Source: Anaerolineales bacterium
Lineage (GTDB): Bacteria; Chloroflexota; Anaerolineae; Anaerolineales; UBA11579
DNA length: 64,000 nt
Direction of reading: 5' to 3'
NCBI GenBank assembly: GCA_035446285.1
Contig: DAOMSJ010000003.1
Coordinates: 70,713-134,712 of the forward strand
Each line of letters opens with the position of its first letter. Within the stretch, counting starts at the first letter, position 1. Positions 3,489 to 29,592 of the stretch are shown here, piece after piece. The translations under genes were made by a program, and so were the position numbers. A model generated the notes under the pieces. That model had not been told where the DNA came from, did no database searches, and worked only from the letters and a program-made list of their open reading frames with translations.

Positions 3489-4685
3489 ATGGCTGAAGAA
3501 CGTCTGCAAAAAATACTGGCTCGTGCGGGCTATGGCTCGCGACGCACTGCGGAAGAGATGATCGAAGCAGGGCGCGTGACCGTGAATGGCGCCACCGCCC
3601 ACATTGGCGATAAAGCCGATGCGTCACGGGATGCCATCAAGGTAGACGGCTCACGCATTTCTGCCGCGGCCAGGCCGGTGTATTACGCAGTCTACAAGCC
3701 ACGCGGTGTGCTCTCGACCACCGGCGGCCCTGAGCCGCGCCAAAAGGTGGTTGACCTCATCCCGGGTGGCGAGCAACTGCACCTGGTGGGCCGCCTGGAC
3801 AAAGAGAGCGAAGGGTTGATGATCCTCACCAATGACGGTGAGCTCACCCAACGTGTCAGCCATCCGCGTTTCGAGCAAGAGAAGGAATACCGCGTGCTGG
3901 TGGCGCGCCAACCAGACGCTGAGCAACTGGCCACCTGGCGCCGCGGCGTCGTGCTGGAAGATGGCACACGCACCCGCCCTGCCGAAGTGCGCATTGAGCA
4001 TAACTACGGCAAAGGCGCCTGGCTGCGTGTGATCATGCATGAGGGGCACAAGCGCCAGATCCGTGAGATTGCCGGCCAACTGGGCCTGCCAGTCGTGAAA
4101 CTGATTCGCGTACGTATCGGCAATCTGTACCTGGGCAGCCTGAAGACCGGTGAGTGGCGTGCCTTGAATGAAAATGAAGTGCGCGATCTGATGGCGGGCG
4201 AAAAGCCAGATACGCGCAAACCGCGCCCCGCCGCCAAGAGTGATGAGGCGCCGCGCAAAACCAGCGCGCCGCGCCGCAAACAGGGCAAAGGCCCCGGCAG
4301 CCGCAAGCCAGCCGTGCGCAAACCCGGCATCGCCCTCGGGCGGCCGCGCCGCGAGAGTGCTGCGGGTGAGGACAGAGGCAATGACACGCCAAGCCGCCGT
4401 CCGTCTGGCCGGCCGAGCTCACGGCCTTCGGGTGGCAAGCCCAGCTCACGCCCGTCTGGCAAACCAAGTTCGCGGCCTTCTGGTGGCAAGCCAAACAGCA
4501 GGCCCTCAAGCAAGCCAAGCTCGAGGCCTTCCGGTGGCAAGCCGAGCACCAGACCTTCAAGCAAGCCGAGCTCGCGCCCATCAGGCAGACCCAGTTCGCG
4601 GCCTGCCGGTAAGCCGAGCTCGCGGCCCGCTGGTAGACCGGCGCGTTCTTCCAGCAAGCCTAGCGGCAATCGCCGCCCACGCTAG
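3489..4685 (+). CDS. rluB: 23S rRNA pseudouridine synthase, RluB/RsuA family, with long basic Pro/Ser/Arg repeat tail
   Basis: N-terminal S4 domain (ERLQKILARAGYGSRRTAEEMIEAGRVTVNG), catalytic GRLDKESEGL motif, and a low-complexity tail of about 150 aa. Confidence 0.8.
   Translation: MAEERLQKILARAGYGSRRTAEEMIEAGRVTVNGATAHIGDKADASRDAIKVDGSRISAAARPVYYAVYKPRGVLSTTGGPEPRQKVVDLIPGGEQLHLVGRLDKESEGLMILTNDGELTQRVSHPRFEQEKEYRVLVARQPDAEQLATWRRGVVLEDGTRTRPAEVRIEHNYGKGAWLRVIMHEGHKRQIREIAGQLGLPVVKLIRVRIGNLYLGSLKTGEWRALNENEVRDLMAGEKPDTRKPRPAAKSDEAPRKTSAPRRKQGKGPGSRKPAVRKPGIALGRPRRESAAGEDRGNDTPSRRPSGRPSSRPSGGKPSSRPSGKPSSRPSGGKPNSRPSSKPSSRPSGGKPSTRPSSKPSSRPSGRPSSRPAGKPSSRPAGRPARSSSKPSGNRRPR
4393..4660 (+). 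repeat. In-frame tandem repeat (about 24-27 nt units, about 10 copies) encoding PSSRPSG(G)K
   Basis: Reiterated ccNagctcNcgNccNtcNgg(tgg)caag units and the peptide ...PSSRPSGGKPSSRPSGKPSSRPSGGKPNSRPSSK... Confidence 0.8.
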
Positions 4686-4729
4686 CAAGAACATTCGTGC
4701 TATACTGCGGCAAACGTTTTAGAGGCCGC

Positions 4730-5971
4730 ATGCGCAATCGTCTGTCACAACGTTTTGGCAGCTTTACCCGTGAGTTTCCGCGTGCCTTCTGGCCCGTGGT
4801 GGCCGTCTCGTTCATAGACGGCATCGGGCGCACGCTGCTCTTCCCCTTCTTTGCCCTCTATGTAACGCAACGCTTCAACGTTGGCGCAACCCAGGCTGGC
4901 CTGGTGACGGGCATGTTCTCAGTCTCTGGCCTTGTGGGCTCGATGGTGGGCGGTGCGCTCACTGACCGCATCGGGCGCAAGAAGCTCATCATTATTGGCT
5001 TGGTGTGCAGTGCGCTCACTACGCTTGGTCTGGGGTTGGTCAACGAGATGCGCTGGCTCTACGTAGTAGCGCTGATCAGCGGCCTGTTCGGTGAGCTGGC
5101 CGGGCCAGCCCACCAAGCCATGATCGCTGACATTCTGCCGGAGAAGCAGCGACAGGAGGGCTTCGGCATTCTGCGCGTCGTAAATAACCTGACCTGGATC
5201 GTGGGGCCAAGTATTGGCGGCCTGCTGGCGGGTTGGTCTTTCTTCTATCTATTCATCTCCGATGCCATCATTAGCTGCATAGTGGCCGTGCTGTTCTTCT
5301 TCTATATTGCTGAGAGCAAGCCCAAGCCAAGTGAAGACCAGCAGCCCGAGAGCTTTGCCAAGACCTTTGCTGGCTACGGTACTGTATTGAAAGACCTGCC
5401 CTTCCTGGCCTTCATCCTCACCTCTATTCTGCTGGGCATGGTCTACATTCAAATGTACGGGACGCTCTCCATCTTCTTGCGAGACCAGCACAACATTGAC
5501 CCGCAAGGCTTTGGCCTGCTGATGAGCACCAGCGGTATCACCGTGATCCTGTTTCAGCTGTGGGTCTCACGCATTATCAAGTGGCGGCCGCCCTTCCTGA
5601 TGATGACCCTGGGTGCCATTTTCTACGTCATTGGCTTCAGCCTCTTCGGGCTGGTGGCGGCCTATTGGCTGTTCGTTGGGGCCATCATCGTCATCACGAT
5701 TGGCGAGATGGTCATCCTGCCCACCGCCTCGGCACTGGCGGCCAACTTTGCGCCGGAGTCAATGCGCGGCCGCTACATGGCCGCCTTCAGCCTGGTGTGG
5801 GCGCTGCCAGCGGCGCTCGGCCCGGCCGCGGCAGGCTTTGTGCTCGACAATTACGATCCGAGTTTATTGTGGCTGGGCGGCGGTGCGCTGTGCGCAATTG
5901 CTGCCGCGTTTTACTATTACCTGCACCTGCGGCTTGGCCAACACAAAAAGTTTGCCGCATCCGCAGAATAA
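4730..5971 (+). CDS. MFS transporter
   Basis: 12 predicted TM helices and the MFS loop motif GALTDRIGRKK. Start chosen at ATG 4730 (agagg upstream) rather than 4697. Confidence 0.75.
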   Translation: MRNRLSQRFGSFTREFPRAFWPVVAVSFIDGIGRTLLFPFFALYVTQRFNVGATQAGLVTGMFSVSGLVGSMVGGALTDRIGRKKLIIIGLVCSALTTLGLGLVNEMRWLYVVALISGLFGELAGPAHQAMIADILPEKQRQEGFGILRVVNNLTWIVGPSIGGLLAGWSFFYLFISDAIISCIVAVLFFFYIAESKPKPSEDQQPESFAKTFAGYGTVLKDLPFLAFILTSILLGMVYIQMYGTLSIFLRDQHNIDPQGFGLLMSTSGITVILFQLWVSRIIKWRPPFLMMTLGAIFYVIGFSLFGLVAAYWLFVGAIIVITIGEMVILPTASALAANFAPESMRGRYMAAFSLVWALPAALGPAAAGFVLDNYDPSLLWLGGGALCAIAAAFYYYLHLRLGQHKKFAASAE

Positions 5972-6050
5972 ACGGCTTCTCACGGCAGGCTTATTGCCGA
6001 ATGTTGCGCCTGCCCGTACAATTGAGCTTTGACCTCCCCAGAGTAAACCT

Positions 6051-9000
6051 ATGGCCAAAGACCCCTCCCCTTCGCACACTAGCTGGTTGGATCGCCCCCT
6101 GCTGGGCGGTAAGAAATTCACTTGGGAGCACGCGGTGCTGGTGCTCATCCTGCTGGCCGCCGTGGTCACGCGCTTTCACATGCTCGGCGAGCGTGTGATG
6201 AGCCATGACGAAACGACCCATGTCTACTTCTCCTGGCAGTTGTTCAAAGGCAACGGCTACCAGCACGACCCGCTGAGCCACGGCCCGATCCAGTTCCACA
6301 TGTTAGCGCTGAGCTACTTCCTGTTTGGCGATAATGATTTCACGGCGCGTGCGCCGCAAGCGTTGTTCGGCGTAGCGACTGTGTTCTTCGTGTGGTGGGC
6401 CTTCCGCCGTTACCTGGGGCGCAACGCCGCCATACTGGCGTCACTGTTCTTTCTTATATCGCCCTATACGATGTACTACAGCCGCTACGCGCGCAACGAG
6501 ATCTTCGTCGCCCTGTTTGGCTTGGTGATGCTGTGGGGCATACTGCGCTATCTGGATACAGGCAAGAATAAATTTATCTACATCACAGTTGCAGCCATCT
6601 CACTGCACTTCACCTCTAAAGAGACCTCCTTCATTTATCTTGCCCAGGCACTGATTTTCCTCGGCCTGGTCTTCCTTTGGCGCATCGCTGCACGCAAATG
6701 GAAGACGGAGGGCGCGCGGCGCGTGTTCTTCGTCACGCTGGTGCTCAGCGTTGCACTGCTGTTCCTGGCGATTGGCGCACAAGCGCAGGCCAGCGAGCAA
6801 GACAGCACGGCGGCAATCAGTGCCACCCAGGTGGAGGAACCTGTCATCCCCTCCGAAGGCGAAAGCGCTGGCTTTGAGTCACCGCTTTCCGCCACCACAG
6901 TAATTCTGGGCGGCCTGGGCGCGCTATCGCTGGTCGCCGCGCTGGTGGCGCTATTCACAGGCTACGGTTTGCCGCGCCTGCGCCAGGAACGCGCCTTCAC
7001 CCTGATGGCCATTCTGTTTGCTCTTGTGCTGCCGCATCTTTCAGCCTTCCCGATACGCTGGTTGCACCACGACCCGATGGCCTACCGCGATACCAGCAAT
7101 CTCATCTTCATCAGCGGCGTCGTTGTAGTGCTGGCAATCATCTCTGGTGTGATGGGTGCGTTGGTCAACTGGCGCGCCTGGTGGGTCAGCACGGCGGTGT
7201 TTTACGCCATCTTTGTGCCCTTCTACACCACCATCTTCAGCAATGGGCTGGGCTTCTTCTCTGGCCTGGTGGGTTCGCTGGGCTACTGGCTGGCGCAGCA
7301 GGCCGTCGAGCGCGGCAACCAGCCCACCTACTACTACTGGGGCGTACAGATTCCTGCCTACGAATTCCTTGCCGCGGCAGGCAGCCTGCTAGCCGGCATC
7401 CTTGGCCTGCGCAGCCTGAAGCGGCTGCAGCACACACAGCCCGACCCGGACAGCGAGGGCCGCGACCTGCTCCCGCACGAGAGCTATCGCATGGCGCTGG
7501 TGCTTTTTGCTTTCTGGGCGGTGACGGCGCTCATCGCCTACACCGTGGCGGGCGAGCGCATGCCCTGGCTCACCCTGCACATTGCCATCCCCATGCTGCT
7601 GCTGGCGGCATGGGCGGTGTCACGCCTGATTGCGCGCATCCCGTGGGCAAGTTTTGCTCAGAACCACGGCTGGATGCTGCTTGGCTCAGTGCTGCTGTGC
7701 CTGGTGGCTAGCTTCAACCTGCTCGGCTCGCTGCTGGGTGCTGCACCGCCCTTCCAAGGCAATGAACAAGCCCAGTTGCAGGCTACTTATCACTTCTTGT
7801 TCTTTGTCATCACCTTTGCGCTTGGCGCCTACGGGGTGATGCACTATGCCTTAGTGGGCGAGTGGCGGCGTGACCAGATCGCGCGTGTGGCTACGCTGCT
7901 GGTGTTTGCCGCGCTGGCCCTGACCACGTTCCGCATTGCCTTGCGCGCCAACTTCCGCAACTACGATCTGGCCACGGAGTATCTGGTCTACGCCCATATG
8001 GCGCCGGGGCCAAAAATTGCCATCAACCAGATCGAAGAGATCTCGCGCCGCCTCACCGATACGCTTGATCTCAAAGTAGCGTACGACAACGAGACTTCCT
8101 ACCCCTTCTGGTGGTATCTACGCAACTATCCCAACCAGCGCTACTACGCAGACCAACCCAGCCGCGATCTGCGTGATTTCCCGGTCATCATCGTGGGTGA
8201 CAGTAACTACGGCAAGATCGAACCCGTGGTGGGCCAGAGCTTCTACATGTTCGAGTACATGCGCATCTGGTGGCCCAACCAAGACTACTTTGACTTCAGC
8301 CCCAGCAGTATTGGCTATGGTTACACCGCTGAGACCGGGCAGCCCGCCACCCAGATGGGCACCGGCGACTACCTGCGCCGCGTAGTGCAAAAACTGTGGA
8401 GCTACATCGGTGACGCTACGACGCGTGATGCGCTGTGGCAGATCTGGATCAATAGTGACTTCACCGATTACCTTACCAACAAGGGCCAGAACGCCAGCCT
8501 CGAAGCCTGGTCACCTGGGCGCACCATGCGCATTTACATCCGCAAGGATGTGGCCGCACAGATCTGGGATTACGGCGTGCAGGGTGTAACGCCCGAAGAC
8601 GTGCTGGCCGACCCTTACGAGGGCAAAGGCCGCGAGCTGCCGCCGCAGTTCACCATCGGCGGCTTTGGCAGCGAGCCCGGTCAGTTCATCTCGCCGCGCA
8701 ACGCCGCCGCAGCGCCAGACGGCACGCTCTATGTTGCCGACACCGGCAACCATCGCATTCAACACCTGGCGCCGGATGGCAGCGTGCTGCACATGTGGGG
8801 CAGCTTTGCTGACCTGGCGGCGGGTGAAGCCGAGGGCGGCACATTCAACGAGCCGTGGTCAATCGCTGTTTCGCCCGATGGCGAGTATGTGTATGTGGCC
8901 GACACCTGGAATCACCGCGTGCAACAGTTCACCTCAAGCGGCGCCTTTGTCCGCATGTGGGGCTACTTCGGGCAGGATGAGAGCAGCGGCGCACTGTGGG

Positions 9001-9521
9001 GCCCGCGTGATGTTGTGGTGCTCAGCGATGGCAACGTGCTAGTGACCGACACCGGCAACAAGCGCTTGCGTCTGTACGATGCGCAAGGCAACCACCTGAG
9101 CGACTATGGTGAATACGGCTTCGATCTCGGCCAGTTTGATGAGCCGGTGGGCCTGGCCTACGATGCCAGCCGCGAGATCATCTATGTGGCCGATACGTGG
9201 AATCAGCGCGTGCAGGTGCTGGAGTATCAGGACGGCCGCTTCATCCCCCAGCCCCCGTGGGAGATTGCCGGCTGGTATGGCCAGTCGCTCATCAACAAGC
9301 CTTATATGAGCGTAGGCCAGGGCGGCCAATTGTTCATTGCTGACCCGGAAGCGGGCCGCGTGCTGGTCTACAACCCCGATGGCACGATTGCCTATTTCTT
9401 CGGCGGCTACGATCAGACCGCGGCCAACATCGCCGTTGCCCAAGGCGTGGCCGCTGACCCCAACGGTGGTGTCTGGGTGATTGACAGCCAGAACGCTACT
9501 GTGTCTTGGTTCACTGAGTAG
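6051..9521 (+). CDS. Fusion protein: N-terminal polytopic GT-C-like membrane domain (TIGR03663/Agl23-like, ArnT/PMT-like) plus C-terminal NHL-repeat beta-propeller
   Basis: About 800 aa with many TM helices and a conserved MSHDETTHVYFS / PLSHGPIQFH start. The C-terminal about 330 aa has repeated NHL signatures (DTGNHRIQHL, DTWNHRVQQF, DTGNKRLRLY, DTWNQRVQVL). Confidence 0.65.
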   Translation: MAKDPSPSHTSWLDRPLLGGKKFTWEHAVLVLILLAAVVTRFHMLGERVMSHDETTHVYFSWQLFKGNGYQHDPLSHGPIQFHMLALSYFLFGDNDFTARAPQALFGVATVFFVWWAFRRYLGRNAAILASLFFLISPYTMYYSRYARNEIFVALFGLVMLWGILRYLDTGKNKFIYITVAAISLHFTSKETSFIYLAQALIFLGLVFLWRIAARKWKTEGARRVFFVTLVLSVALLFLAIGAQAQASEQDSTAAISATQVEEPVIPSEGESAGFESPLSATTVILGGLGALSLVAALVALFTGYGLPRLRQERAFTLMAILFALVLPHLSAFPIRWLHHDPMAYRDTSNLIFISGVVVVLAIISGVMGALVNWRAWWVSTAVFYAIFVPFYTTIFSNGLGFFSGLVGSLGYWLAQQAVERGNQPTYYYWGVQIPAYEFLAAAGSLLAGILGLRSLKRLQHTQPDPDSEGRDLLPHESYRMALVLFAFWAVTALIAYTVAGERMPWLTLHIAIPMLLLAAWAVSRLIARIPWASFAQNHGWMLLGSVLLCLVASFNLLGSLLGAAPPFQGNEQAQLQATYHFLFFVITFALGAYGVMHYALVGEWRRDQIARVATLLVFAALALTTFRIALRANFRNYDLATEYLVYAHMAPGPKIAINQIEEISRRLTDTLDLKVAYDNETSYPFWWYLRNYPNQRYYADQPSRDLRDFPVIIVGDSNYGKIEPVVGQSFYMFEYMRIWWPNQDYFDFSPSSIGYGYTAETGQPATQMGTGDYLRRVVQKLWSYIGDATTRDALWQIWINSDFTDYLTNKGQNASLEAWSPGRTMRIYIRKDVAAQIWDYGVQGVTPEDVLADPYEGKGRELPPQFTIGGFGSEPGQFISPRNAAAAPDGTLYVADTGNHRIQHLAPDGSVLHMWGSFADLAAGEAEGGTFNEPWSIAVSPDGEYVYVADTWNHRVQQFTSSGAFVRMWGYFGQDESSGALWGPRDVVVLSDGNVLVTDTGNKRLRLYDAQGNHLSDYGEYGFDLGQFDEPVGLAYDASREIIYVADTWNQRVQVLEYQDGRFIPQPPWEIAGWYGQSLINKPYMSVGQGGQLFIADPEAGRVLVYNPDGTIAYFFGGYDQTAANIAVAQGVAADPNGGVWVIDSQNATVSWFTE

Positions 9522-9528
9522 CCAGAAT

Positions 9529-10120
9529 ATGAGCAAAATAGAGAAACTTCTTGATGTTCACATTGCAGAGTACGAAGCTTTGCGACGAGAAATTGAGGTT
9601 CGCACAAATTCGCAGGTCCAGCTTATCAGCTATTCTGTTGCGATCATTGCTGCTGTAATAACACTACTCAGTATAGCCGTGGACACAGTAACAACCCAGT
9701 ATCCAGTAGTGTTGCTCATTGCCTCAACACTTCTCTCTACACTAATCTGGGCCACTCTTCATGAGATATCCTATATTTTAGAAATCTATAACTACATAAA
9801 TCAAGTACTAAAGAAGAATATAAAGAATACACTTGGTTTAAAAGGAAAAGTTCCTGAATATCTAGGCTGGGAGAAGTTTGCTTACGCACAATCCTTTCGC
9901 AGGTTTTCGCGCGGCGTGCTATCGCTAGGCATTACTGCAATTTCTGCAATTTACAAGCCTTACTTTCCTGGGAATGTACTTCCTAATTCGAGATCCATTT
10001 GCAGCAGAAGTGCCGCTATTTGAACTTGCTCTATTCATTCTCTCTATTTTTGCTTTCGTCTTCTCTTTCATCGGCTTTGCTGGAAACGCGGCTACTCTAA
10101 AGCTGGCAACCAAAAAGTAA
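9529..10120 (+). pseudogene. Hypothetical multi-TM membrane protein in a low-GC islet, apparently frameshifted near 9930-9965
   Basis: Frame 1 ORF is MSKIEKLLDVHIAEYEALRREIE...GITAISAIYK, with a stop at 10021-10023. The +1 frame is open from 9929 to the TAA at 10118-10120 and encodes a convincing TM continuation, LTFLGMYFLIRDPFAAEVPLFELALFILSIFAFVFSFIGFAGNAATLKLATKK. Confidence 0.45.
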
Positions 10121-19051: not shown

Positions 19052-20257
19052 CTAGACAAACTCCATAAACACTTGATTGCCAAGCAGCCGCCCTTGCTGG
19101 GTCAGGCGTAGTGTCCCCGCTGCGGTCTCGAGCAAGCCGCGGCGCTGCAGCGTGCTGATGCTTTTGCCGTAGACCTGCTCCAGCGTGCTGCCGAAGCGTT
19201 GGGCGAACCCTTCAGTGGAGACGCCTTCATGCACCAGGCGCAGGCCCATCATCATTGTCTCGCCCATCTCACGCTCGACGTCGACCTGCTCGGCGCTGGC
19301 TGTGGCTGGCGTTCTCGGCAGTGTAGGCAGCTTGGCAGCCTGCACTGCCACGGCCTCGCGCATGCGTTTGATGTAGGCGGCGGGCGCCAGCACGTTGGCG
19401 GTGCGGTGGCCGGCCAAGAAGCCGTGCGCCCCCGCCCCCAGCCCGGCGTAGGGCAGATTGCGCCAGTATTGCAAGTTGTGCCGGCAGGCCAGCAGTTTGC
19501 CATCAGGGCCGGGTTTGGCCCAGTTGGAGATCTCGTACTGCACAAAGCCAGCCGCTGCCAGCTCACTATCGGCCAGCTCGTACATCTCGGCAGCCAGATC
19601 GCCGTCGGGCAAGGCCAACAGGCCGCGAGCGTCTAATTCTTTGAACGGCGTGCCATGCTCAATGCTGAGGGCGTAGAGCGAGAGATGCTCAGGGGCAAGG
19701 CTCACGGCCAGCTCCAAATTGCGCTGCCAGCTGGCCAGGCTCTGCCCGGGCAGACCGAAGATCCAATCCAGATTGAGATTCTCAAAACCAGCCTGGCGCG
19801 CCCACTTGACCGAGTTGATCACATCGGCAAAGTCGTGTTCGCGTTCCAGCACGATGAGCTCATGCGGGCTGGCCGATTGCACGCCCAAGCTGAGGCGGTT
19901 GAAGCCCGCCGCCCGCAGGCCTGCCAGGTACTCCGGTGACAGGGTGCCCGGGTTGGCCTCCAACGAGATCTCGGCATCGGCAGCCACATCGTAGGCTGCA
20001 TGCAGCGCCGCCAGCAGGCGCTGCATGCCGTCCAGCGGCAGTAGCGAAGGCGTGCCGCCGCCCAAGAAGATGGTGTGAACGGGCAGTCGCTGGCCGCCGG
20101 CCTCTTGTGCGGCGCGGCCCAGCCACTCAGCCTCGGCGATGAGCGCATCTGTGTACGCAGGGATGAGGCTATCCAGCCCAGCATAGGTATTGAAATCACA
20201 ATAGCCGCAACGGTGGCGGCAGAAGGGGATGTGCAAGTACAGGCTGGTGGGCTGCAT
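19052..20257 (-). CDS. hemW: Radical SAM family heme chaperone HemW (oxygen-independent coproporphyrinogen-III oxidase-like)
   Basis: LYLHIPFCRHRCGYCDFN cluster motif, GGGTPS, and a HemN_C-like C-terminus. Start set at MQPTSLY, because the upstream part of the ORF-track frame is the heptamer repeat. Confidence 0.85.
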   Translation of the reverse strand: MQPTSLYLHIPFCRHRCGYCDFNTYAGLDSLIPAYTDALIAEAEWLGRAAQEAGGQRLPVHTIFLGGGTPSLLPLDGMQRLLAALHAAYDVAADAEISLEANPGTLSPEYLAGLRAAGFNRLSLGVQSASPHELIVLEREHDFADVINSVKWARQAGFENLNLDWIFGLPGQSLASWQRNLELAVSLAPEHLSLYALSIEHGTPFKELDARGLLALPDGDLAAEMYELADSELAAAGFVQYEISNWAKPGPDGKLLACRHNLQYWRNLPYAGLGAGAHGFLAGHRTANVLAPAAYIKRMREAVAVQAAKLPTLPRTPATASAEQVDVEREMGETMMMGLRLVHEGVSTEGFAQRFGSTLEQVYGKSISTLQRRGLLETAAGTLRLTQQGRLLGNQVFMEFV

Positions 20258-25076: not shown

Positions 25077-25994
25077 ATGCCTTCGCCAGATGCGCACGCC
25101 AGCGCTATACCCGCCGCCGCATGCTACCGCGTATCGCAGCCGGGCACGCTGTTGGTGAGCGGCGCCACACGGCAAGACTACTTGCAGCGCCAGACCACCA
25201 ATGATATCGGCCTGCTTAGTGCGCAACGCGCCGTTCCGACGGTGCTGACCAATCCCAGCGCGCGTATTTTAGAGGTGTTCACTGTAGTGCAGCACGGTGA
25301 AGCCATGCTGCTGCTTACCCAGGCTGGCCACGCCGCCGGCCTGGCGGCTTACTTCAAACGCCACATCTTCTTTAATGATGACGTGAGTGTTACAGATGTC
25401 AGCGCAGAGTGGGAGCAGGTTGAGATCGTAGGCGTACAAGCGCAGGCAGCTCTGGCGGCGCTGGGTCTGCCCGCCCCTGCCACGCTGGACGAAGTTGCCA
25501 GCGGCACGCTGGAGAGCTACAGCGTGTATGCCATTGCGGAAGACAGCGGCATTCGCTTGCTCATGCCAGCAGGCGCACTACCTGCCCTGCTGGCCGCGCT
25601 GCAAGCCAATGGGTTGCCCGAGCTTACGACAGATGCGCGTGAGCAGCTGCGCATCGAAGCTGGCCGCGCCGGTACCCCTGAATTCACCGATGCCTACACC
25701 CCGTTCGAAGTTGGCTTGCGCCGCTATGTTTCAGACACAAAAGGCTGCTACACCGGCCAGGAAGTGCTGGCGCGCCAGGTGACCTATGACAAGGTCACGC
25801 GTAGCTTGGCGCTGATGCGCACCGCCGCTGGTGTGCAACCCGGCGCCAGCGTGCAGCTGGAGGGCCGCACGCTGGGCAGCGTGAGCTCGGTTGCCGCTTC
25901 CGGCGACACAGGGCTGGCGCTGGCGGTGCTGCGCAAGCCGTTTGAAATAGGCCAGGAAGTCAGCATTGGCGGGCATCCCGCTACAATTCTCTAG
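25077..25994 (+). CDS. ygfZ: YgfZ/GcvT-like folate-binding Fe-S cluster repair protein
   Basis: Diagnostic KGCYTGQE motif and aminomethyltransferase-like fold length. Confidence 0.8.
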   Translation: MPSPDAHASAIPAAACYRVSQPGTLLVSGATRQDYLQRQTTNDIGLLSAQRAVPTVLTNPSARILEVFTVVQHGEAMLLLTQAGHAAGLAAYFKRHIFFNDDVSVTDVSAEWEQVEIVGVQAQAALAALGLPAPATLDEVASGTLESYSVYAIAEDSGIRLLMPAGALPALLAALQANGLPELTTDAREQLRIEAGRAGTPEFTDAYTPFEVGLRRYVSDTKGCYTGQEVLARQVTYDKVTRSLALMRTAAGVQPGASVQLEGRTLGSVSSVAASGDTGLALAVLRKPFEIGQEVSIGGHPATIL

Positions 25995-26013
25995 TCCCCT
26001 CTGCACTAGCCTC

Positions 26014-26044
26014 AAAAAGAGCCCGCATTTTTGCGGGCTCTTTG
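26014..26044 (+). terminator. Intrinsic terminator after ygfZ-like gene
   Basis: agagcccgca-tttt-tgcgggctct followed by a short T tract. Confidence 0.55.
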
Positions 26045-26116
26045 CGCTTATAGCCAGATTCTTGAAGCCTATTTAAGAAAATTTAAGCCAGTTTTCAACT
26101 TTCCTTATTAAAACTA

Positions 26117-26144
26117 TTGACATTATCAAGAATACCTGTATACT
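26117..26144 (+). promoter_or_regulatory. Near-consensus sigma70-type promoter TTGACA-16 nt-TATACT
   Basis: Sits in a conspicuously AT-rich gap of about 170 nt. GGAGG at 26201-26205 precedes ATG 26211. Confidence 0.55.
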
Positions 26145-26210
26145 TTTCTATGATTTAACGAGCAATCATTCAGATTTTACAAGGTTCGTTTTAGATTTTT
26201 GGAGGAAACC

Positions 26211-26465
26211 ATGTACCAGAACATTCATAGCTTTGCCGAACACCGTGCGCAGGATGCCAGCCAGCTGGCTCGCCTGCAGGCCCAGGCTCACGCTGTGGAC
26301 CCGCAGCCCCAGGTTGCCGTGCTCAACAGCCTGTTCGATGAGATGCGCAACCAGGCTGCCGGCGCCCTGTTCTCTCTGGGCAGCTGGGTGGCGCCGCGCA
26401 AGTCGCTGCGCCCCACGGTGCCCGTGCAGTTGCAGCGCACGGCCAATCACAGCATCGCTGGCTAA
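26211..26465 (+). CDS. Hypothetical 84-aa protein, first gene of the five-gene operon
   Basis: Good SD and ATG, and the stop lies 2 nt before the next start. No recognisable motif. Confidence 0.5.
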   Translation: MYQNIHSFAEHRAQDASQLARLQAQAHAVDPQPQVAVLNSLFDEMRNQAAGALFSLGSWVAPRKSLRPTVPVQLQRTANHSIAG

Positions 26466-26467
26466 CC

Positions 26468-26854
26468 ATGCACCACGCTCCCTCAGCCTGCCCCGTGTGC
26501 AGCGGCGAGCTGGTGGTCACCAGCTTGCGCTGCCGCGAATGTGACACCAGCCTGCAAGGACGCTTCGCCAGCGCACCCTTCAGCCAACTCAGCGAGGACC
26601 AGCTTGCCTTCGTCGAACTCTTTGTTCGCAACGAGGGCAAGCTAACCCGCATGGAAGCCGATCTGGGCCTTTCCTACCCCACCATCCGCAACCGCCTGCT
26701 GGAGATCATTCGCAGCCTGGGGTACGAGCCCGGCGAGGATGAATTTGCCGGGCTGAGCGAAGACGAACGCAAGCAAATCGTGGATGACCTTGAACGTGGC
26801 GCCATCAGCTATGACCAAGCCATGCAGCGCATCCAAAACCTACAAGGAAATTGA
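26468..26854 (+). CDS. DUF2089-like protein (zinc ribbon + HTH)
   Basis: CPVCSGELVVTSLRCRECDTSLQGRF zinc ribbon, then LSEDQLAFVELFVRNEGKLTRMEADLGLSYPTIRNRLLEI helix-turn-helix. Confidence 0.7.
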   Translation: MHHAPSACPVCSGELVVTSLRCRECDTSLQGRFASAPFSQLSEDQLAFVELFVRNEGKLTRMEADLGLSYPTIRNRLLEIIRSLGYEPGEDEFAGLSEDERKQIVDDLERGAISYDQAMQRIQNLQGN

Positions 26855-26855
26855 G

Positions 26856-28085
26856 ATGGCACGAATAGAGATCCCCTGTGACGATGACGCCCAAATCAAC
26901 ATCGAAAGTGTGCACGGCTCGCTGCAAGTGCGCGGCTGGGACACAGACCGCGTTCGTATCGAGGCACGCAACGAAAATGACGTGCACTACACCAACACCC
27001 CCGACTCGCTAACGCTGCAAGTCACCAATGATTGCGTGCTGCGCGTGCCGCTGGCCAGCAGCCTCAATGTGCAGAAGGTGACGCGTGACGCCTACGTGCA
27101 CAACATTGAAGGCGAAGTGAGCATTGAGCAGGTGGCCGGTTCGCTCACCCTGCGCAATGTCGGCGAGACCACCGTGCAGCATGTGGCCGGCAGCTTCACC
27201 GCCCGCAACATTGAAGGCAGCCTGACCGTAGACGAAGTAGCTGGCAATGCCAGCGTGCGCAACATCGAGGGCGACTTCATTGCCCGCTCGGTGAGCGCTA
27301 ACCTGGCCGCCCGCAACATCCAAGGTGACCTGCAGGCCATGGTTGCCGGCAATGCCGACCTGCGCCTGGAATCCGAGGGCGATGTCTCCGTAGAAGCCAG
27401 CGGCAATCTGTTCTGCCGCCTCTCGGAGGCGGAGAACGCCAGTGTGCTGCTGGAGAGTGCCGCCCAGAACATCAACCTCAACACCGGCGAAGGCAAGACC
27501 CACATCCAGGCCGCCACGCACCAGTTCACCCTGGGCGACGGCTCACAAGATGTGCGCCTCGTGGCCGCCGGCCTGATCGATTTTCGCAGCCGCGGCTCCA
27601 GCGACGATCTGGACGAGCTGGATATTGACCTCGACCTGGATCTGGACTTTATGGACGACAGCAGTGCGCTGGCAGGCGAGATCACCGAGCAAATCACCGC
27701 CCAACTGGACCAGCAGATGGAGAACGTGAACGAGCAGCTCAAGCAGATGCAAGAACGCTTGCGCCACTCCACCGAGCGCGCCCAGCACCGCGCCCAACAG
27801 CGCGTGGCCGAGGTGCAACGCCGCCTGCAAAGCAAGCTAAACCAGCGCAGCTCCCGCGTGGCGGTGCAGCCCAAGAAGGCCGCCCCGGTTAGTGAACAGG
27901 AGCGCATGCTCATCTTACAGATGGTGCAAGACAAGAAGATCAGCGTGGCTCAAGCGGAAATGCTGCTGAACACCATTGAAGGCCGCCAAGCCACGCCCCC
28001 CACTCCGCCGGTGCCTCCTGTTCCACCCGTGCCTCCGGTTGCGCCGGTTGCACCGCTAGACCCTGAGGACACTCCCGATGCCTAA
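26856..28085 (+). CDS. DUF4097 / YvlB-LiaX-like beta-repeat protein with acidic run, coiled coil, SHOCT-like motif and (PPV)n tail
   Basis: Degenerate ~20-aa repeats (VAGSLTLRNVGE, VAGSFTARNIEG, VAGNASVRNIEG, VSANLAARNIQG), DDLDELDIDLDLDLDFMDD, a heptad-rich 90 aa, ERMLILQMVQDKKISVAQAEMLLNTIEG, and PPTPPVPPVPPVPPVAPVAP. Confidence 0.6.
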   Translation: MARIEIPCDDDAQINIESVHGSLQVRGWDTDRVRIEARNENDVHYTNTPDSLTLQVTNDCVLRVPLASSLNVQKVTRDAYVHNIEGEVSIEQVAGSLTLRNVGETTVQHVAGSFTARNIEGSLTVDEVAGNASVRNIEGDFIARSVSANLAARNIQGDLQAMVAGNADLRLESEGDVSVEASGNLFCRLSEAENASVLLESAAQNINLNTGEGKTHIQAATHQFTLGDGSQDVRLVAAGLIDFRSRGSSDDLDELDIDLDLDLDFMDDSSALAGEITEQITAQLDQQMENVNEQLKQMQERLRHSTERAQHRAQQRVAEVQRRLQSKLNQRSSRVAVQPKKAAPVSEQERMLILQMVQDKKISVAQAEMLLNTIEGRQATPPTPPVPPVPPVPPVAPVAPLDPEDTPDA

Positions 28086-28701
28086 CGCCCAGCAACGCAT
28101 GGAGATATTGCTGCGCCTCGAACGCGGCGAGATCACCCCTGCAGACGCTGAGCAGTTGCTCAGCGGCATGCAGGATCTGCCTCCAGCAGCCGATACCCGT
28201 ATGGGCATCCTGGAGCAGGTGGAACGCGGCCAGCTCAGTGCAGATGAGGCCACACAGCGCCTATTGCAGCAGCCTACTGTAGTCATCCACGAGGCTCAAC
28301 ACCGTGCGCGTGACGAGCGCACGGTGTTTGAAAATGAACATGTGAGCGTCACCCCCATCAAGCCCAAGCAAAGCGCTGGGCGCGGCTTGCTCATCATTGG
28401 CCTGGTGATCACCATTGGCAGCGCGCTGTGGATGGGCAATGTCCTGCAGCGCAGTGGCATGAACTTCTGGTTTTTCTGCCTGTGGTTGCCCTTTGCCATC
28501 GGGCTGGCCACCGTGGTGATAGGTTGGGTGGTGCGTAACAGCGAATGGATGCGTGTACGCGTCGGCTCGCACAAACCGGGCAAACATTCAGTGAATGTTG
28601 ACATGCCCTTGCCCACCAGCGTAGTCGAAACATTTATCGAGAAGAGCACAAACTGGTTCCGCGGCAAACAAGATGAAACGCCTCGCAGAGAGGAACGCTA
28701 G
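28078..28701 (+). CDS. Two-TM membrane protein with two N-terminal SHOCT-like motifs
   Basis: QRMEILLRLERGEITPADAEQLLSGMQ and RMGILEQVERGQLSADEATQRLLQ, then TM helices GLLIIGLVITIGSALWMGNVL and FWFFCLWLPFAIGLATVVIGWVV. Overlaps the upstream stop by 8 nt. Confidence 0.55.
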   Translation: MPNAQQRMEILLRLERGEITPADAEQLLSGMQDLPPAADTRMGILEQVERGQLSADEATQRLLQQPTVVIHEAQHRARDERTVFENEHVSVTPIKPKQSAGRGLLIIGLVITIGSALWMGNVLQRSGMNFWFFCLWLPFAIGLATVVIGWVVRNSEWMRVRVGSHKPGKHSVNVDMPLPTSVVETFIEKSTNWFRGKQDETPRREER

Positions 28702-28708
28702 GAGAGCT

Positions 28709-29086
28709 ATGGCAAGCAGCGAAGAACGAATCAAGATACTGCAAATGATCCAGGACGGCAAAATCAGCCCGGATGACGGCGCCAAGTTGCTTGAGGCGCT
28801 GAACCGCAGCGCCGGGCTGCGCCCCACTCCACCCCGCCCGCCTAACCCGGTGGAGGATGGCCGTTACCTGCGTGTGCGTGTGACGGATGTCATCACTGGC
28901 AAAGCCAAGGTGAGTGTGAACTTGCCGCTCTCGCTGGTGGATGCCGGCATGAGCATCGCCTCCAACTTTGCACCGGAGATCGCCCATGCCGACATTATGG
29001 GCGCCATCCGCGACGGGCTGAGCGGCAAGATTGTGGACGTGATTGACGAAGAAGATGGGGAGCACGTCGAGATCTTTCTCGACTAG
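28709..29086 (+). CDS. Small protein: SHOCT-like motif + beta-rich C-terminal domain
   Basis: GGAGAG SD. ERIKILQMIQDGKISPDDGAKLLEAL, then YLRVRVTDVITGKAKVSVNLPLSLVDAG... Confidence 0.55.
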   Translation: MASSEERIKILQMIQDGKISPDDGAKLLEALNRSAGLRPTPPRPPNPVEDGRYLRVRVTDVITGKAKVSVNLPLSLVDAGMSIASNFAPEIAHADIMGAIRDGLSGKIVDVIDEEDGEHVEIFLD

Positions 29087-29105
29087 GCTATAACAATGCA
29101 CGTAT

Positions 29106-29136
29106 AAAAAACCGCTGAGGTCTCAGCGGTTTTTTG
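29106..29136 (+). terminator. Intrinsic terminator closing the five-gene operon
   Basis: aaaaaa-ccgctgag-gt-ctcagcgg-tttttt. Confidence 0.75.
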
Positions 29137-29160
29137 TTGCCCCTGCGCTATACTGAGTCC

Positions 29161-29592
29161 ATGGCTGTACGCAACCCAGACGAAGTTTTCGTCACCGCGG
29201 AACAACTGCCCAACGCGTGCAGTGGGCCGCTGCACGCCGAGGCCGCACGCGGCATCGCCCTATTCAACGCCGGCCAGTACTGGGAAGCACACGAGGCCTT
29301 GGAAGCCGCCTGGAAAGAGGAACAAGGCCCAGCACGCCATCTGTACAAGGGTATTTTGCAAGCCGGGGTGATGTACCTGCAGATTCAGCGCGGCAACTAC
29401 GTAGGTATGGCCAAGATGTACGAGCGCTGCAAAAAATGGCTGCGCCCCTGGCCAGCGCTGTGCCGCGGCGTGGACGTAGAGCAACTGCGTGCGGATGTGG
29501 AAACGGTGATGGAAGCGGCGCGGGCGCTGGGGCCAGAGCGCCTGGGGGAATTCGATTGGGGATTAATGAAGAAGATAGTGGTTAGTGATTAG
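29161..29592 (+). CDS. DUF309 domain protein
   Basis: GIALFNAGQYWEAHEALEAAWKEE...GILQAGVMYLQIQRGN is typical of DUF309. Confidence 0.65.
   Translation: MAVRNPDEVFVTAEQLPNACSGPLHAEAARGIALFNAGQYWEAHEALEAAWKEEQGPARHLYKGILQAGVMYLQIQRGNYVGMAKMYERCKKWLRPWPALCRGVDVEQLRADVETVMEAARALGPERLGEFDWGLMKKIVVSD

Follow-up and report, generated by a model that had tools for sequence, protein, structure and literature searches.

The stretch of DNA analysed here, referred to as the window, comprises 64,000 nucleotides of an Anaerolineales genome (phylum Chloroflexota; assembly GCA_035446285.1, contig DAOMSJ010000003.1, positions 70,713 to 134,712). Our subject is an operon of five open reading frames (ORFs) within it, which encode in order a small protein (ORF1), a DUF2089-type regulator (ORF2), a Toastrack (DUF4097-class) protein (ORF3), a membrane protein (ORF4) and a soluble paralogue of ORF4 (ORF5). 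With high confidence, we place this locus among the autonomous operons of the DUF2089/Toastrack/SHOCT-like class, for which a role in membrane-proximal stress signalling, resembling that of the Psp and Lia systems, has been proposed.

The operon and its products

The operon is a real and self-contained unit. Its five genes, all on the same strand, span positions 26211–29086 with gaps of 2, 1, −8 and 7 nt, and follow a near-consensus promoter and a GGAGG sequence (26201–26205) that lies 5 nt 5′ of the ORF1 start codon. These features, together with the hairpin and T6 tract that close the unit, are as an initial annotation of the DNA had described them (Table 1). The closing terminator was missed by an automated terminator scan and confirmed by folding; the segment 29087–29142 folds with −21.8 kcal/mol (z = −5.0), and none of 200 shuffled sequences folded equally well. 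Because the preceding gene (25077–25994, matching PF01571, GCV_T/YgfZ-like) ends in a hairpin of its own and the operon has its own terminator, the unit is insulated on both sides.

Table 1. Coordinates of the operon, its signals and the parts of its products (numbering of the window; domain limits in residues).
Feature	Position	Strand	Description
Terminator hairpin of the preceding gene	26016–26043	+	Stem of 12 bp (−24.1 kcal/mol, z = −5.1) that delimits the unit upstream
Sigma-70-type promoter, TTGACA-16-TATACT	26117–26144	+	11 of 12 consensus positions matched (promoter scan)
Palindrome TTGACATTATCAA (TTGA-N5-TCAA)	26117–26129	.	Candidate operator for the ORF2 helix-turn-helix; overlaps the −35 box
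Conserved 5′-untranslated block ATTTTACAAGGTTCGTTTTAGA	26174–26195	+	Downstream of the −10 box, ahead of the Shine-Dalgarno sequence
ORF1, 84 aa	26211–26465	+	Small protein
ORF2, 128 aa	26468–26854	+	Zinc ribbon 8–39, helix-turn-helix 41–87, weak SHOCT-like match 99–127
ORF3, 409 aa	26856–28085	+	β-helix 1 to ~245, acidic run, long helix 270–331, SHOCT-like 347–376, Pro-rich tail
ORF4, 207 aa	28078–28701	+	SHOCT-like 6–34 and 40–66, two-transmembrane hairpin ~99–153, C-terminally truncated X domain ~157–190
ORF5, 125 aa	28709–29086	+	SHOCT-like 2–34, disordered linker, X domain 50–125
Intrinsic terminator	29104–29141	+	15-bp hairpin followed by U6

The products are linked by a shared motif that corresponds to the Pfam family PF22746 (SHOCT-like_DUF2089-C), of which there are five copies in four proteins, the one in ORF2 being a weak match. 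Against a gathering cut-off of 27 bits, ORF5 scores 44.6 bits (E 9e-12), ORF4 35.4 bits over two stretches (E 7e-9) and ORF3 32.4 bits (E 6e-8). The initial annotation had seen a motif of ~26 residues four times in ORF3 to ORF5, and had made its case depend on statistical support for it; these copies are significant, all three proteins exceeding the cut-off, but a fifth, weak copy in ORF2 had been overlooked. When aligned, the ORF2 copy has 8–10 of 29 residues in common with the other four, and the DUF2089 proteins of Firmicutes reach up to 29.7 bits on the same family. AlphaFold2 models the motif as a two-helix hairpin, with helices at residues 347–358 and 364–374 in ORF3, and at residues 2–16 and 21–34 in ORF5.

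ORF2 matches the zinc ribbon family PF22747 with 47.3 bits (cut-off 27.6 bits), the CPVC and CREC pairs being visible, and the helix-turn-helix (HTH) family PF09862 with 69.8 bits (cut-off 33.4 bits) over positions 1–47 of the 47 in the model; both domains had been recognised at the outset. By its sequence ORF2 is a canonical zinc ribbon-HTH protein of the DUF2089 type, predicted to bind DNA, with a probable SHOCT-like hairpin at its C-terminus. Family searches of the kind that the initial annotation had proposed find DUF2089 in ORF2 and the SHOCT-like family in ORF3 to ORF5 above their cut-offs. Pfam now has entries for these domains (PF22746, PF22747 and "Toastrack DUF4097").

The N-terminal part of ORF3 repeats with a period of 18 residues (autocorrelation z = 6.8). 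Its AlphaFold2 model was built without an alignment and is nonetheless a confident β-helix, with a predicted local distance difference test score (pLDDT) above 90 for residues 1–170. The top Foldseek matches (3lyc, 3ljy, 4ygu, 3jx8, 3pet, 4qrk and 4opw; E 2e-4 to 2e-2) are of the "putative adhesin" type, and 4QRK and 4OPW are the structures by which Toastrack is defined in the literature; TM-scores are low (0.25–0.43), and 7muc is the sole match outside this group at E<0.02. Pfam DUF4097 (PF13349) gives no match to full-length ORF3 at E<1 and none to residues 1–245 at E<0.1, but it does match one of eight close orthologues (2.1e-9) and about a third of the 85 homologues. The ORF3 family aligns with bona fide PF13349 proteins over 215 columns (hhalign 98.7%, E 4e-16), the comparison set including the protein L003:7545–8507 (61.4 bits on PF13349; L numbers denote the loci compared here). 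From the repeat period, the model, the fold matches and the profile-profile alignment, we assign residues 1 to ~245 to the Toastrack/DUF4097 class. The DUF4097 label of the initial annotation is thus upheld by profiles, relatives and fold rather than by a direct family match, and the β repeats that it described are present with a period of 18 rather than ~20 residues.

Beyond the β-helix, ORF3 contains the acidic run, long helical segment and proline tail that had been noted before; the acidic run is conserved as DxDLDLDF, and the helix, of 60 residues, precedes the SHOCT-like hairpin. No signal peptide or transmembrane (TM) segment was found in ORF3 or in ORF5. We conclude that ORF3 is a soluble Toastrack β-helix platform, joined through its long helix to a SHOCT-like hairpin.

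The only TM segments among the five products are those of ORF4, at residues ~99–124 and ~128–153 by hydropathy, in agreement with the two TM helices first reported; both are bordered by basic residues. Such a 2-TM topology would place the SHOCT-like and X parts of ORF4 on the same side of the lipid bilayer, and the basic flanks suggest that this side, with both termini, is the cytoplasmic one. Profiles of the ORF4 and ORF5 families align across the SHOCT-like hairpin and the C-terminal domain (hhalign 99.5%, E 2.9e-23), and the two proteins are paralogues, each with a SHOCT-like hairpin and an X domain, ORF4 bearing an inserted 2-TM hairpin. All of the 30 ORF4 relatives match PF22746 and none matches PspC, a holin family or DUF2157; ORF1, ORF4 and ORF5 gave no match to PspC or holin families. 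We considered and rejected LiaI-LiaF-TM or PspC as the identity of the TM hairpin, since the lone weak DUF2157 match (E 0.13) was not reproduced in these relatives.

The X copy of ORF4 is cut after the first β-hairpin and helix in the window (28546–28701) and in L009, L010, L011 and L089; most relatives continue to a complete VDxxxDGExVxIxIG motif at their end. Since the shortened form persists in copies with as little as 77% identity, it is not an artefact. L009, from a metagenome-assembled genome (MAG) of an uncultured Anaerolineaceae, is 98% identical to the window at ORF5; its ORF4 is split by a frameshift (5371–5993), either an assembly error or the mark of a pseudogene.

The AlphaFold2 model of ORF5, built with an alignment (pLDDT 81.5), gives the X domain a ββ-ααα-ββ fold. 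The domain is not in Pfam or NCBIfam, and with a best match of E 0.09, which is not significant, in a fold search of the PDB with ORF5, it has no assignable fold relative. ORF5 has 4135 homologues and is highly conserved (60–99% identity), and the X domain alone as query retrieves 535 representatives of 50%-identity clusters, the names of which told little about taxonomic breadth beyond Anaerolineales; a plasmid search with ORF5 gave no match. One match lies in a 5692-residue "uncharacterized protein" of the crayfish Procambarus clarkii (P0214, XP_045624803.1), in which the first half of X (query residues 6–46) is matched in six stretches (overall E 2e-20); this could be a spurious match driven by repeats, a contamination or a real eukaryotic repeat.

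ORF1 matches no Pfam or NCBIfam family. A word-index search found just two proteins nearly identical to it, and a hypothetical protein of an Anaerolineales MAG has the same sequence (100% identity). An iterated hidden Markov model (HMM) search over the 89 loci fetched for comparison found orthologues of the same length and position in 12, sharing a conserved AGxALxxLGxW(I/V)xP(R/K) segment; there are counterparts of 71–73 aa in Ktedonobacteria, and the ratio of nonsynonymous to synonymous substitution (dN/dS) against L009 is 0.11. The retention of position, length and motif, the Ktedonobacteria counterparts and the dN/dS value show that ORF1 is a real gene, and we regard its product as a small, fast-evolving accessory protein. 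Small ORFs that have diverged further are present in other loci and contain a comparable hGxWh motif; their homology to ORF1 could not be shown.

Searches of NCBIfam with the five products gave nothing meaningful, and sequence searches of the PDB gave nothing significant for ORF2, ORF3 or the ORF5 family. The sole Rfam match in 25900–29300 is a sub-threshold Thr_leader on the upstream terminator hairpin, which we take to be due to chance.

Conservation and variants of the module

At least 499 loci of this kind turned up in a scan of a collection in which each species is represented by a single genome. The best 80 of these are all labelled Chloroflexota, save one contig binned as Ramlibacter, and the 85 ORF3 homologues come from Anaerolineales wherever the source is named, with one from Ktedonobacter. 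In the comparison of gene order among the 89 fetched loci, more than 70 keep the order ORF2-ORF3-ORF4-ORF5, the exceptions being mostly contigs that end too early. The genes around the module vary, with an ABC (ATP-binding cassette) transporter in L003, LysM/M23 in L006, CorA/LexA in L008, and TrxB, GCV_T and DUF309 in the window, L001 and L002. From this variation of the flanks we conclude that the module is maintained as a unit; the conservation of gene neighbourhood, which the initial annotation had named as a check, is thus seen as a constant order amid differing neighbours. The immediate flanks in the window are ordinary (TrxB-like, GCV_T/YgfZ-like, DUF309, GNAT and a cyclase). In one locus only, L006, a pair of genes for an extracytoplasmic function (ECF) sigma factor and a zf-HC2 anti-sigma factor lies ~1.4 kb downstream of the module (8840–9717, minus strand), and is reminiscent of the DUF2089 genes that Ravi et al. 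(PMC11237479) describe in association with a sigma factor.

Several variants add genes to the basic set. In L032 a 425-residue transporter of the major facilitator superfamily (MFS; PF07690, E 7e-52) is encoded at 4669–5946, between the ORF4 and ORF5 homologues, and gaps of similar size, ~1.3 kb, separate the two genes in L034, L037, L043, L047, L051, L056, L059, L066, L070, L074, L078, L081, L082, L084 and L086, a likeness of size, the gene content having been seen in L032. An extra Toastrack gene follows ORF5 in five or six loci (L003, at 7545–8510, L020, L027, L044, L063 and L086); the L003 copy, the only one inspected, matches PF13349 with 61 bits and has a C-terminal SHOCT-like hairpin of its own.

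More distant versions depart further from the Anaerolineales form. In the Ktedonobacteria loci L004 (3734–6878) and L005 (3982–6824), a small ORF and the DUF2089 gene are followed by a gene for a SHOCT-like + X (SHOCT-X) protein and by one for a 600-residue protein with Toastrack, coiled-coil, Pro-rich and SHOCT-like parts. L007 (3354–6659) has a DUF2089 gene, a 37-aa ORF, a membrane protease of the Rce1/CPBP family and a 552-residue protein with the domain order of LiaX and YvlB, consisting of a SHOCT-like N-terminus, a helical region and a C-terminal Toastrack domain (114 bits). On replicons of Niallia taxi and Paraclostridium bifermentans, the gene directly after DUF2089 encodes an ORF5 homologue that aligns with the ORF5 family from end to end (hhalign 97.5% and 98.6%).

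A third small ORF of 93–95 aa comes after the Firmicute pair of genes (L090, 4740–5021, on Niallia taxi pMEGANia; L091, 4780–5067); by eye it resembles an X domain (IKVKV...FTIPVP...DGTEVSVRL) without a SHOCT-like hairpin. On a Legionella adelaidensis plasmid (L092, 4001–6310), DUF2089 is preceded by an SbmA/BacA-like peptide transporter and followed, instead of by SHOCT-X, by a Yip1-like multi-TM protein and a 400-residue coiled-coil protein.

Because Ktedonobacteria and Firmicutes both keep DUF2089 directly before SHOCT-X, this dyad is the conserved core of the system, and the Chloroflexota have added to it the Toastrack platform, the membrane-anchored paralogue and ORF1. ORF5 is a soluble SHOCT-X protein that is the most conserved component of the operon, and the partner of DUF2089 even in Firmicutes.

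Candidate operator, proposed mechanism and alternatives

Both promoter hexamers align in 11 orthologous upstream regions, and in this alignment the −35 box forms part of the palindrome TTGA-N5-TCAA. Exact copies of the palindrome occur 25 times in 43.6 kb of DNA upstream of DUF2089 genes, compared with 19 occurrences in the other 780 kb of these loci, an enrichment of ~24-fold per kb upstream of these operons. The spacings N3, N4, N6 and N7 give 0, 2, 7 and 3 matches, respectively, and since they were tested in the same AT-rich upstream DNA they control for base composition. Five loci have paired sites, 21 or 42–43 bp apart, equivalent to two or four helical turns. This distribution suggests that the HTH of ORF2 binds the palindrome and that ORF2 regulates its own operon, probably as a repressor since the site overlaps the −35 box.

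The region upstream of the module in L005 also carries a palindrome, TTGACATTTTCAA. The sole other exact site in the window (19773–19785) was rejected as an operator; it lies inside a GC-rich 430-aa ORF on the minus strand, two or more sites were present in 12 of 100 shuffled sequences, and it is probably there by chance. The conserved block of the 5′-untranslated region is shared by the window, L009, L010 and L011, and in part by L012 and L028, and matches no Rfam family; it contains a TCAA-like half-site (ACAAGG).

Our best overall explanation of the locus, which we judge to have about an even chance of being right, is a stress-signalling operon in which a sub-membrane assembly governs switching by ORF2. 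The SHOCT-like hairpins, through contacts with one another or through common binding to the membrane surface, would gather ORF2 to ORF5, the regulator included, into one assembly on the membrane's cytoplasmic side. ORF2 would occupy the palindrome over the −35 box and repress its own operon; perturbation of the membrane would alter the assembly of ORF3, ORF4 and ORF5, and this in turn would change the amount of ORF2 that is free at the operator, switching the operon and possibly other targets. Such a mechanism follows the prediction of Ravi et al. (PMC11237479) that Toastrack domains are intracellular, sub-membrane assembly platforms and SHOCT-like domains membrane-proximal anchors, for which anchoring to the inner leaflet is proposed. 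It also has analogies in LiaX, whose C-terminal β domain inhibits LiaFSR (PMC6936494), and in YvlB, which contacts PspA and LiaH in bacterial two-hybrid assays (PMC9239133). The reading of the locus as an envelope-stress signalling unit, already put forward in the initial annotation, therefore agrees with a prediction from comparative genomics, while resting on analogy with LiaX, YvlB, LiaG and LiaF.

Several observations weigh against this explanation. The link to envelope stress is drawn by analogy, and neither PspA, PspC or LiaI-LiaF-TM, nor a sigma/anti-sigma pair or a two-component system, was found in or next to the operon. The Ktedonobacteria variant is without any TM protein, so that membrane tethering through ORF4 is not universal. 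The SHOCT-like copy in ORF2, the one that would bring the regulator to the assembly, scores 22 bits (E 1.2e-4), below the PF22746 cut-off, and self-oligomerisation of the classical SHOCT domain was absent in the single published test (PMC3581485). Where the initial annotation took the motif to mediate assembly between proteins, Ravi et al. favour anchoring to the inner leaflet. As for the operator, the exact palindrome is present upstream in just 20 of 78 loci, and half of it is the −35 hexamer consensus itself.

The alternatives are less well supported. The first supposes that DUF2089 and SHOCT-X form a switch responding to small molecules or peptides, which would in reality control genes for efflux or immunity, with ORF3 and ORF4 as accessories. 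It would account for the MFS gene inside the L032 module and the ~15 loci in which a gap matches it in size (~1.3 kb), the ABC transporter genes directly upstream in L003, the SbmA/BacA-like transporter adjoining DUF2089 on the Legionella plasmid, and the DUF2089 genes of leaderless-bacteriocin immunity loci (PMC7332713). The window operon and most of its relatives contain no transporter, however, and no ligand-binding domain is recognisable, X itself having no significant structural match. As the full explanation we consider it unlikely, and it is compatible with sub-membrane signalling rather than exclusive of it.

LiaX is without signal peptide or TM segment, like ORF3, but is nevertheless exposed on the cell surface and able to bind daptomycin and LL-37 (PMC6936494), and ORF3 has the same set of domains, plus an acidic run and a long helix that is amphipathic. 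By this analogy ORF3, and perhaps ORF5, could leave the cell by a route that needs no classical signal, capture antimicrobial peptides or lipopeptides at the surface and report through ORF4 to ORF2. Such an extracellular sentinel is quite improbable here, given that the domain order is the reverse of that in LiaX, that no PspC (LiaY) or holin-like (LiaZ) partner was found, and that the same hairpin occurs on a DNA-binding protein, which is necessarily cytoplasmic. The predicted topology of ORF4 sets its hairpins on the side of that regulator, and Ravi et al. argue for an intracellular location of such domains (PMC11237479). The suggestion, in the initial annotation, that ORF3 might be a surface protein loses ground for the same reason, and because neither ORF3 nor ORF5 has a signal peptide or TM segment.

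A purely structural role, in which ORF3 polymerises or forms a bactofilin-like sub-membrane scaffold, anchored by ORF4 and ORF5 and with its dosage set by ORF2, has only a slight likelihood. The regular 18-residue β-helix followed by a 60-residue helix would suit a scaffold, as would the longer β-helix of the Ktedonobacteria versions (about 600 aa) and the plasmid-borne MreB gene near the Paraclostridium dyad. The best fold matches of ORF3, however, are to Toastrack "putative adhesin" structures, not to bactofilins, for which there is no Pfam match, and the Firmicute dyads are without ORF3, so that the conserved core is regulator plus SHOCT-X. That the module is a mobile cassette, serving defence or akin to a toxin-antitoxin system, in which a small HTH regulator and its compact partners move among contexts and plasmids, is highly improbable despite its varied neighbourhoods and the DUF2089 dyads on Firmicute and Legionella plasmids, since PADLOC gave for the five products nothing better than coiled-coil noise (E 0.011), the window has no flanking integrase or repeats and its housekeeping neighbours are syntenic with other Anaerolineales, and ORF5, at 60–99% identity, is unlike fast-turnover defence genes.

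Within the preferred explanation of a stress-signalling operon, a more specific and rather doubtful proposal is that the SHOCT-like hairpin serves as a private tag for hetero-association, by which the DUF2089 regulator would be held at the membrane through the hairpins of ORF3, ORF4 and ORF5, and released or captured when the membrane is perturbed. If so, the operon would represent a new kind of one-component, sequestration-based device for envelope signalling; DUF2089 plus SHOCT-X would be an ancient core common to Firmicutes and Chloroflexota, and X the actual sensor or effector module.

The subject matters beyond this genome. Toastrack and SHOCT-like proteins (LiaX, YvlB, LiaG and LiaF) are central to the means by which Gram-positive bacteria resist daptomycin, antimicrobial peptides and bacteriocins, and Toastrack genes of Listeria are induced by a bacteriocin (PMC12791056). 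The operon type, judged by the numbers of loci and of X-domain clusters given above, is a large family. Here platform, anchor, soluble partner and transcription factor are split into small proteins that share one tag, next to a plausible candidate operator, and these properties make the locus a simple system for questions of SHOCT-like binding and of how Toastrack proteins act on regulators. Its practical value is lowered by the difficulty of culturing Anaerolineales; the Firmicute dyad of DUF2089 and SHOCT-X would be the tractable entry point.

Comparison with known systems

The SHOCT-like hairpins resemble the classical SHOCT domain (PF09851; Eberhardt et al. 2013, PMC3581485) in being short, two-helix terminal modules fused to many unrelated domains. 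They differ in sequence family, the copies in the window matching PF22746 rather than PF09851; weak PF09851 matches are seen in three of the 30 ORF4 relatives.

The central idea, an association of DUF2089, Toastrack and SHOCT-like domains with a predicted role in signalling, has already been published, and what appears to be new is the present arrangement. Ravi, Anantharaman, Aravind, Gennaro et al. (mSystems 2024; PMC11237479) set out DUF2089, its link to Toastrack and a "SHOCT-like+X" neighbour, and predict Lia/Psp-like membrane-proximal signalling. The window operon shares with the contexts given there a zinc ribbon-HTH regulator, in which the SHOCT-like part is here the weak match of ORF2, and its association with Toastrack and SHOCT-like proteins, and the co-operonic ORF2 and ORF5 are like the dyad of their Table S4, the B. 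megaterium "X" of which may be the same domain. Their four-gene context combines a sigma factor and a zf-HC2 anti-sigma receptor with membrane-anchored Toastrack proteins, none of which is in the window operon; the five products gave no match to sigma or zf-HC2 families, and the immediate flanks likewise belong to other families. Here, by contrast, the Toastrack protein is soluble and bears a C-terminal SHOCT-like hairpin, anchoring in the membrane falls to a separate protein, a paralogue of the SHOCT-X protein, and a small ORF1 leads the operon. In the main text of that study and the parts of its supplement covered here, we found no description of the Chloroflexota arrangement, the paralogy of ORF4 and ORF5, X as a family, ORF1 or the palindrome. 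The initial annotation's statement that no five-part system of this composition had been characterised holds as regards experiment; the domains, the DUF2089-Toastrack link and the succession of DUF2089 and SHOCT-like+X had, however, already been catalogued there.

LiaX of Enterococcus (liaXYZ) and YvlB of Bacillus subtilis (yvlABCD) are the closest parallels to ORF3, in that they too combine a SHOCT-like or helical region with a Toastrack (DUF4097) β domain, have neither a signal peptide nor a TM segment, and have small membrane proteins encoded beside them; experiments link them to the response to cell-envelope stress. In both, the helical part is N-terminal and the β part C-terminal, the reverse of the order in ORF3, and their partners, the PspC-domain proteins LiaY and YvlC and the holin-like proteins LiaZ and YvlD, were not found in the window operon. 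They are controlled by LiaFSR or by sigma-W, whereas the window operon carries its own DUF2089 regulator and a sigma-70-like promoter. With the domain order reversed and the PspC and holin-like partners absent, the locus is not a LiaX/YvlB operon, and the YvlB/LiaX-type architecture first attributed to it has to be corrected.

A further likeness is to LiaF and LiaG of the Bacillus liaIHGFSR operon, which have Toastrack-class domains (DUF2154 and DUF4097) that act at the membrane and modulate transcriptional output; LiaF is a negative regulator of LiaRS. Those proteins have TM anchors of their own and act through a two-component system, whereas in the operon described here anchor, platform and regulator are separate polypeptides that share the SHOCT-like hairpin.

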